This document shows positions 4,576 to 4,883 of a stretch of DNA of 64,000 nucleotides, piece after piece (position 1 is the first letter of the stretch; each line of letters opens with the position of its first letter). The DNA comes from a virus: the IMG/VR virus record IMGVR_UViG_3300041405_000299, positions 1 through 64,000 of that record. One strand, 5' to 3'. The notes beneath the pieces were generated by a model, which ran no database searches, had not been told where the DNA came from, and saw nothing but the letters and a program-made list of their open reading frames with translations. Both the position numbers and the translations under genes were made by a program.

Positions 4576-4789
4576 AATTAGGGACGCAGACTTTACGACT
4601 TCGGAAGTTTAGTCTGAATCCCGCCATACAATGGGTTGGTAGTTTGTAGGGACCCTGATCAGGTCTTACCAAAAACGCCCGGGGTCCAACCCGGGAGACG
4701 CAGGTAGAATACTGCACGGCCCGCCAAACAAAGTCCCGCACCTATCCAGTCCGCACGAGGTCAGGAGGGTTCGCAAAGCGGGCATTAAT
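4576..4789 (+). ncRNA. ORF-free GC-rich structured spacer inside tRNA island A
   Basis: No credible ORF. Hairpins include CCCGGG-gtccaa-CCCGGG, the palindrome CCTGATCAGG, and GCCCGC...GCGGGC long-range pairing. Confidence 0.4.
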
Positions 4790-4877
4790 TGGGACGTAGC
4801 TTTGAAAGCAGCCGGTGCGTATCCGGTGAGTTAACACCCTGCGGGGTGACTTGAAGGTGGAAATCCTTCCGTCCTAC
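4790..4877 (+). ncRNA. Type-II-like tRNA-like element with non-canonical loops
   Basis: 7-bp acceptor TGGGACG/CGTCCTA. Anticodon-like arm GCCGG-TGCGTAT-CCGGT (G at position 33). Variable hairpin CACCC-tgcg-GGGTG. T-like arm GAAGG-TGGAAAT-CCTTC. No CCA. Confidence 0.45.
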
Positions 4878-4883
4878 CTTTTT

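Follow-up and report, generated by a model that had tools for sequence, protein, structure and literature searches.

A conserved tRNA-like cloverleaf among predicted small RNA modules in the tRNA island of an Arash-related phage

The window analysed here, a continuous stretch of 64,000 nucleotides, covers the first 64 kb of an IMG/VR phage record that is 172,104 bp long and carries direct terminal repeats. The phage with this 172-kb genome is uncultured, and its nearest named relative is Salmonella phage Arash (OQ632216, an orphan), which has been described previously (PMC10585845). ARAGORN recognizes 25 tRNA or tRNA-like genes in the genome, every one of them on the + strand. All true tRNAs of the island that concerns us encode their CCA, and neighbouring true tRNAs are just 1-4 nt apart (Pro/Ser, Ser/Ala). 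The region studied is a much wider gap of 308 nt (positions 4576-4883), which extends from a tRNA-like gene with a short anticodon loop to tRNA-Ser(GCU) (Table 1).

A preliminary description of this gap had taken it for a single structured RNA of about 300 nt that is GC-rich, free of credible ORFs and built of strong local helices. The helices are present, and we agree that there is no credible ORF: stop-free stretches occur as expected by chance in all six frames and none is conserved, and a search of the relatives for a conserved small ORF, which would have spoken against an RNA, found none. The region is not GC-rich, with 53.9% GC compared with 52.0% for the genome and 55.2% for the tRNA island. 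Nor does it behave as one RNA, because the 308 nt fold barely better than shuffled sequences (z = -1.97) and the relatives show four modules. At gathering thresholds on the window and at permissive thresholds on positions 4480-4990, Rfam matched solely the flanking tRNAs and so returned no family that would give the region another meaning. The Rfam tRNA model (gathering threshold 29 bits) finds nothing inside 4576-4883 even at E values up to 10 in a 511-nt search. ARAGORN finds no tmRNA in the genome, and the Rfam tmRNA model gives only a 12-bit chance match that lies outside the region.

We compared the window phage with Arash (L001) and with three IMG/VR relatives, L004 (176 kb), L005 (a 40-kb fragment) and L070 (176 kb); a further genome, Erwinia phage pEp_SNUABM_01 (L002), is considered below. 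The slot between tRNA-Asp and tRNA-Ser(GCU) differs in composition from genome to genome. In the window phage, tRNA-Asp is followed by the short-loop tRNA-like gene, by the elements that we call modules 0, A, B and C, and then by tRNA-Ser. The order in L005 is tRNA-Asp, module 0, A, B, tRNA-Ser, and L004 has a different GCCA-ended piece between tRNA-Asp and A, again followed by B and tRNA-Ser. In L070 the order is tRNA-Asp, A, another tRNA-like cloverleaf and tRNA-Ser, and in Arash it is a truncated tRNA-Asp-like remnant, A, an unrelated hairpin with a U-run and tRNA-Ser. Module A is the sole slot module common to all five genomes. On this comparison the region is an assembly of four separable predicted small RNA modules, each gained or lost independently, rather than one RNA. 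A pairing of 4581-4587 with 4871-4877 that would close a single large RNA was considered and rejected, since module 0 occurs in L005 although C does not, and C is also missing from Arash, L004 and L070.

Table 1. Features in and around the region studied, in window coordinates
Feature	Positions	Strand	Remarks
tRNA-like gene	4502-4575	+	6-nt anticodon loop, encoded CCA; ARAGORN 'tRNA-???'; Rfam tRNA 34.4 bits
Module 0, 46-nt minihelix	4581-4626	+	Fold z = -4.09
Module 0, 4-bp stem	4581-4584/4619-4622	+	
Module 0, hairpin	4587-4616	+	
Module 0, GCCA	4623-4626	+	
Module A, 94-nt cloverleaf, putatively tRNA-derived	4633-4726	+	RNAalifold, covariation, model R1
A, acceptor stem, 6 bp	4633-4638/4717-4722	+	Followed by G73 (4723) and CCA (4724-4726)
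A, U8 A9	4640-4641	+	
A, D-stem-like GUUU/AAAC	4642-4645/4673-4676	+	
A, arm 1, in place of D loop	4649-4654/4662-4667	+	Loop CUGAUCA 4655-4661
A, arm 2, anticodon-arm position	4678-4683/4690-4695	+	Loop GUCCAA
A, variable segment, 4 nt	4696-4699	+	
A, arm 3, T-arm position	4700-4703/4712-4715	+	8-nt loop
Module B, 51-nt imperfect hairpin	4733-4783	+	RNAalifold, model R2
B, outer stem	4735-4739/4778-4782	+	
B, inner stem	from 4740	+	Conserved 7-nt bulge UCGCAAA on 3' side
Module C, 89-nt type-II-like cloverleaf	4790-4878	+	ARAGORN tRNA-Thr(cgt); minimum-energy fold
tRNA-Ser(GCU), true	4884-4969	+	Closes the island; Rfam tRNA 60.7 bits, ARAGORN agrees

The tRNA-like gene upstream of the gap, which has an anticodon loop one base short and sits between tRNA-Asp and module 0, is an insertion found in the window phage only; L005, L004 and L070 pass from tRNA-Asp directly to the next module. 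It is flanked by short repeats (GCCAA..TT), suggesting that it was inserted through duplication or recombination between tRNA 3' ends. At the downstream border of the gap, the tRNA-Ser(GCU) of the window is 81% identical to the Arash copy and 73% identical to the L004 and L005 copies. This is the opposite of the pattern for everything upstream of tRNA-Ser(GCU), where the window is closer to L004 and L005, and because of this reversal a recombination (mosaic) joint may lie near module C.

Other elements of the slot and its surroundings are unannotated or escape the standard programs. The tRNA-Asp(GUC)-like remnant of Arash is an unannotated 60-nt segment (2198-2257) directly upstream of the Arash copy of A, in which the acceptor, D and anticodon arms are intact and the T arm is missing; its Rfam tRNA score of 29.9 bits is barely above threshold and ARAGORN does not call it. 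The different cloverleaf that L070 carries between A and tRNA-Ser in place of B (2404-2486) combines a degenerate anticodon arm with a 7-bp acceptor stem, A73-CCA and a good T arm; it is called by neither ARAGORN nor Rfam and has a short 5' motif, ACCUAUC, in common with B. The spacer of about 35 nt after tRNA-Ala holds a hairpin (window 4384-4422, Arash about 2010-2050, L070 2190-2225). It is near-identical in these three phages, and thus more conserved than the surrounding tRNAs, and in Arash it comes after an inserted ORF, not immediately after tRNA-Ala. Directly downstream of the island, the ORF at 5014-5439 has a P-loop-like start (GTGKS), no match to any Pfam family and a homologue in L070 that is 70% identical. 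Pfam searches with the flanking proteins returned no informative domain.

For module A, an RNAalifold run with four sequences predicts three hairpins within a closing stem, the helices that had also been read by eye. In our alignment A5, which holds five sequences in four distinct rows from one small clade (hence few independent covariation events) and was fitted to the covariance model R1, favouring structure somewhat, 95.4% of the cells are standard pairs. Nine of the 22 pairs have changed on both sides and yet remain paired, compared with at most one for structures shifted by 1-3 columns; an earlier MAFFT alignment gives the same picture, with six double-changed pairs. The window phage and Arash differ at 19 positions of the module, 14 of them in paired columns, and in five cases both partners of a pair have changed without loss of pairing; when 19 substitutions were placed at random 200,000 times, no placement reached this result. 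Read on the other strand, the conserved G-U pairs would become A-C mismatches, so that the fold belongs to the + strand, which is the tRNA strand. The module is 81.9% identical to its Arash copy (65.6-81.4% for five true tRNAs) and 91.7% identical to its L004 copy (73-99% for six true tRNAs), and is thus conserved at least as well as the true tRNAs. Fold z-scores of single A sequences are weak (-1.66, -1.23 and -0.60). Judged from the alignments, all four predicted helices of A have been kept by selection, through compensatory changes, in five related phages.

Model R1, built from the A sequences of the window phage and its relatives, detects exactly one copy in each of the four genomes that were searched whole (window phage, Arash, L004 and L070) and one in the locus searched on the 40-kb L005 fragment. 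The Arash copy maps to 61,408-61,511 (minus strand), and the copy in L070, at 52.9 bits (E about 1e-12), is a diverged one. In all five carriers the module lies between tRNA-Asp, or its remnant, and tRNA-Ser(GCU). Pattern scans of IMG/VR (two), of metagenome contigs and of 185,579 prokaryote genomes identified no further carrier, and blastn against GenBank phages and E. coli genomes identified no further homologue. Another 38 IMG/VR loci retrieved with a loose A pattern proved to be chance matches.

In module A, G73, the CCA and the next three bases are invariant in the five copies, as is the leader before the 5' G except for its first base. The D-stem-like GUUU/AAAC pairing is likewise invariant and holds in all five, and because it never varies the pairing itself is unproven. 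The acceptor stem is reduced in Arash and L070 to 4 bp plus three mismatches. The loops are variable: L070 has a tetraloop in arm 1 and a 7-nt loop in arm 2, where the other four copies have 7 nt (CUGAUCA) and 6 nt (GUCCAA), respectively, and the loop of arm 3 ranges from 6 to 10 nt without a T-loop consensus. No loop is conserved in length and sequence together across the five copies. The module has no D loop, no G18-G19, no T-loop consensus (U54-U55-C56, A58) and no conserved 7-nt anticodon loop with U33 and purine 37, and the Rfam tRNA model does not match the A copies of the window phage, Arash or L070. With variable loops and without the elbow nucleotides, A cannot decode.

When R1 is run against true tRNAs the matches are weak. 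The best is to tRNA-Asp (24.8 bits), with acceptor aligned on acceptor and arm 3 on the T arm, and A with arm 1 removed also aligns best to tRNA-Asp. We take A to be an old derivative of a tRNA gene; as the parent, its upstream neighbour tRNA-Asp is the nearest match, though a weak one. Three other assignments were considered and dropped. A tRNA-Trp parent, raised by the CCAA loop motif, scored below tRNA-Asp. Readings of arm 1 as an anticodon arm (GAU) or as a dimerising palindromic loop fail on conservation, as L070 has a tetraloop there. Finally, the view of A as a D-armless type-II tRNA for seryl-tRNA synthetase was set aside for a mapping that makes GUUU/AAAC the D stem and places arm 2 at the anticodon position; we prefer this mapping because the pairing is present in all five copies, whereas the alternative register proposed by RNAalifold fails in L070.

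Module B is a separately selected hairpin. RNAalifold gives it 16 pairs, three of which show compensatory double changes, and its G-U pairs fit the + strand only. The covariance model R2 detects a single copy in each of four phages, the window phage, L004, L005 and Erwinia phage pEp_SNUABM_01. It finds no copy in Arash or L070 and does not detect the Arash segment at that position. In every carrier genome B lies directly upstream of a tRNA or tRNA-like gene with a long variable arm. Its counterpart in Erwinia phages of the pEp_SNUABM_01 group (Vequintavirinae, Henunavirus), a group unrelated to the Arash clade, is an 80% identical spacer segment directly upstream of tRNA-Leu; in BLAST searches with this Erwinia spacer the B segment was matched only in that group. 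That B serves as a leader or processing element of the long-arm tRNA that follows it is a guess. What the sequence comparisons show is the structures of A and B, the selection on both, their distribution and the lack of a conserved ORF. In pEp_SNUABM_01, the spacer between tRNA-Arg and tRNA-Leu also holds a 51-nt minihelix (1114-1164) with a 6-bp closing stem and then GCCA, followed by a hairpin (1165-1200) and then by module B. The 1165-1200 hairpin is also present in Raoultella phage Ro1, Erwinia phage Hena1 and Serratia phage ChuuTotoro (92-96% identity).

Module 0 has a 98% identical copy at the same place in L005, the only carrier besides the window phage. The sequence at this position in L004 is a different one, again with GCCA at its end, and Arash and L070 have nothing there; the minihelix of the Erwinia spacer, which ends in GCCA, is an analogue. 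Module C was the element on which the preliminary description concentrated, and its account of the fold is accurate: the last 88-89 nt of the region before tRNA-Ser form the cloverleaf as their minimum-energy structure both alone and within the whole 308 nt. A 7-bp acceptor stem opening with U1-A72, a 4-bp D stem with a 3-nt loop, a 5-bp stem with the loop UGCGUAU (G33), a long variable hairpin arm and a T stem with the loop UGGAAAU can all be traced in the sequence, the D and T loops being non-canonical. The fold is better than most shuffles (z = -2.46; 2 of 200 shuffles as good). CCA is not encoded, the 3' end running CC and then UUUUU, and the Rfam tRNA model gives C no score even at E values up to 10. 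We found no homologue of C beyond the length of a search word in IMG/VR, GenBank phages, metagenome and genome contigs or the full records of the four relatives; Arash, L004, L005 and L070 have no C at this position, and matches to its T-arm and anticodon-arm words were chance matches in coding DNA of unrelated taxa. Only its predicted fold speaks for a function of C. There is a resemblance between its first 13 nt and the beginning of module 0, a short match that hints at local duplication. C may be a decaying or a newly acquired tRNA-like gene. Module 0, C and the short-loop tRNA-like gene are lineage-specific additions of putative function.

The reading that we favour, and consider probable, is that the four modules are co-transcribed as a string with the tRNAs and that A is a selected, non-decoding tRNA mimic released by host enzymes. 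Transcription, processing, stability and the role as a mimic are what we infer. We found no internal promoter or convincing terminator among the modules, which would probably be part of a polycistronic tRNA precursor made from a promoter-like site at 3740. An acceptor stem and CCA are the features used by RNase P and by the enterobacterial 3' trimming exonucleases. Since both A and module 0 present an acceptor stem plus CCA, both should be released as discrete RNAs. Host RNase P would cut at the 5' G of A, and 3' exonucleases would trim it back to the CCA, releasing a discrete RNA of about 94 nt, although without a T-loop/D-loop elbow A would be a poorer substrate for RNase P. The released RNA would read no codons and would act as a tRNA mimic that binds or occupies some factor that recognizes tRNAs. 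If A is such a mimic, it is possible, and we put this forward tentatively, that it serves as a decoy for a defence nuclease or toxin that targets tRNAs; the larger share of our expectation is spread over other partners. Work on phage tRNAs provides a context for the decoy idea (PMC10264068).

The modules could instead act in cis as punctuation, that is, as tRNA-shaped cutting signals or spacers that allow RNase P and RNase E to dissect the precursor and that keep neighbouring tRNAs from misfolding, the excised pieces having no role of their own. The arrangement is in keeping with this, because every module lies among true tRNAs of the same strand and no promoter or convincing terminator was found within the series, the GCCA ends of 0 and A resemble those of substrates of the tRNA 3' pathway, and B always directly precedes a long-arm tRNA. 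We nevertheless regard the idea as unlikely. The true tRNAs of the island manage with 1-4 nt between them, so that a 94-nt spacer is unneeded, and in L070 A directly follows tRNA-Asp; moreover, the four helices and the junction sequences of A are kept at a strength like that of tRNAs, beyond what a cutting signal needs.

A narrower form of the decoy idea, to which we give a low probability, holds that A is purpose-built as a decoy for a host defence enzyme that targets tRNAs, a CCA-ended tRNA skeleton from which all that the ribosome requires has been removed, with module 0, C and the short-loop tRNA-like gene as fresh rounds of an arms race. The targets envisaged may be an anticodon nuclease, a nucleotidyltransferase acting on the acceptor end or a similar toxin. 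A search of the window genome for a tRNA-repair ligase gave no match for PF09414 and an uninformative result for PF09511, and with no RNA ligase found nothing in the genome points to an arms race with anticodon nucleases.

It is improbable that the whole stretch is debris, the decaying and functionless remains of duplicated tRNA genes. The slot is certainly plastic, with module 0, the short-loop tRNA-like gene, C and the L070 cloverleaf each confined to one lineage, a truncated tRNA-Asp-like remnant (29.9 bits) just upstream of A in Arash, and a C that lacks a homologue, CCA and a tRNA score. Drift, however, yields no paired compensatory changes in all four helices of A, nor in B, and would not keep the copies of A more similar to each other than those of true tRNAs. 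Taken by themselves, C and module 0 have a roughly even chance of being debris.

That A (or C) is an unusual working tRNA, aminoacylated and used by the ribosome, for example as a short-loop frameshifting tRNA, seems to us very improbable. The acceptor stem, G73 and encoded CCA of A, its 7-nt arm 2 loop in L070, and a 7-nt loop in C that could be read as a CGU anticodon would be compatible with such a role, and the window phage also encodes a CUA suppressor tRNA and other odd-loop tRNA-like genes. Against it, every loop of A varies in length, in sequence or in both, the absence of G18-G19 and of the T-loop consensus means that the elbow required by the ribosome and elongation factors cannot form, and neither A nor C scores with the Rfam tRNA model. 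C furthermore has G33, no CCA and a type-II body, which is known from no bacterial tRNA-Thr. A hidden small protein gene, such as the 84-codon minus-strand frame at 4487-4741, can be dismissed almost entirely: the frame is open across A in the window phage, L004, L005 and Arash, but its start is not conserved, a 2-nt indel puts it out of register between the window and L004/L005, the L070 translation has only its ends in common with the others and an unrelated middle, nearly all nucleotide changes alter the amino acid yet preserve the RNA pairs, and the frame would run antisense through tRNA-like genes.

Taking A, then, as a non-decoding tRNA mimic, we compared it with known RNAs. The preliminary description likened the region to the stable non-tRNA species of phage T4; the likeness holds for A, which that description did not delineate; C, which it emphasised, has no comparative support. 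T4 RNAC (species 1, rnaC) and RNAD (species 2, rnaD) are stable RNAs of the T4 tRNA cluster whose roles are still not known (PMC3014915, PMC9697503). Like A, they lie among phage tRNA genes on the tRNA strand and are non-decoding, and RNAC also resembles A in a fold with paired 5' and 3' ends and several arms. Run on the T4 tRNA region, R1 has its best hit over rnaC at 13 bits (E 0.04), which is the same level as true tRNAs, and homology is undetectable. RNAC is 139 nt long with a canonical T arm, whereas A has 94 nt and has lost the T-loop consensus but kept an encoded CCA; A, unlike the T4 RNAs, is confined to the Arash-like clade. RNAC and RNAD are the closest known kind to A.

Canonical tRNAs (RF00005), and tRNA-Asp(GUC) in particular, share with A the order of helices, the acceptor stem with G73 and CCA, U8-A9, the 4-nt variable segment and the D-stem-like pairing, together with the weak covariance-model match to tRNA-Asp. 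They differ from it in that A has a hairpin for the D loop, lacks G18-G19, the T-loop consensus and a conserved anticodon loop, and falls below every tRNA-model threshold. The tRNA-like RNAs of murine gammaherpesvirus 68, mascRNA and the t-elements of plant mitochondria are mimics that are cut by tRNA enzymes and are not aminoacylated. The excision without decoding that we propose for A would be the same, although these RNAs are eukaryotic and unrelated to A in sequence, and the processing of A is inferred. YrlA (Y-RNA-like) tRNA mimics are bacterial and some are encoded by phages. Like A they are non-decoding RNAs with a tRNA-like module, but they keep T-loop and D-loop mimicry and A has neither; in the Rfam comparison no family other than tRNA matched the region. 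The route by which A appears to have been remodelled is different from that of many such RNAs, in that the elbow has been lost, a hairpin has taken the place of the D loop and the acceptor end has been kept.

It has been known for fifty years that phages carry stable non-tRNA RNAs among their tRNA genes. Module A would be a new family in this known class of tRNA look-alikes, not a new kind of element, and it offers a compact example with covariation behind it, from a group of phages that includes a cultured member. Arash grows on Salmonella Typhimurium ATCC 14028, which makes the expression, ends, partners and deletion phenotype of A directly testable. The locus as a whole reads as a record of the gain and loss of modules that appear to be tRNA-derived, and it includes a hairpin, B, that seems to have been exchanged across unrelated phage groups.
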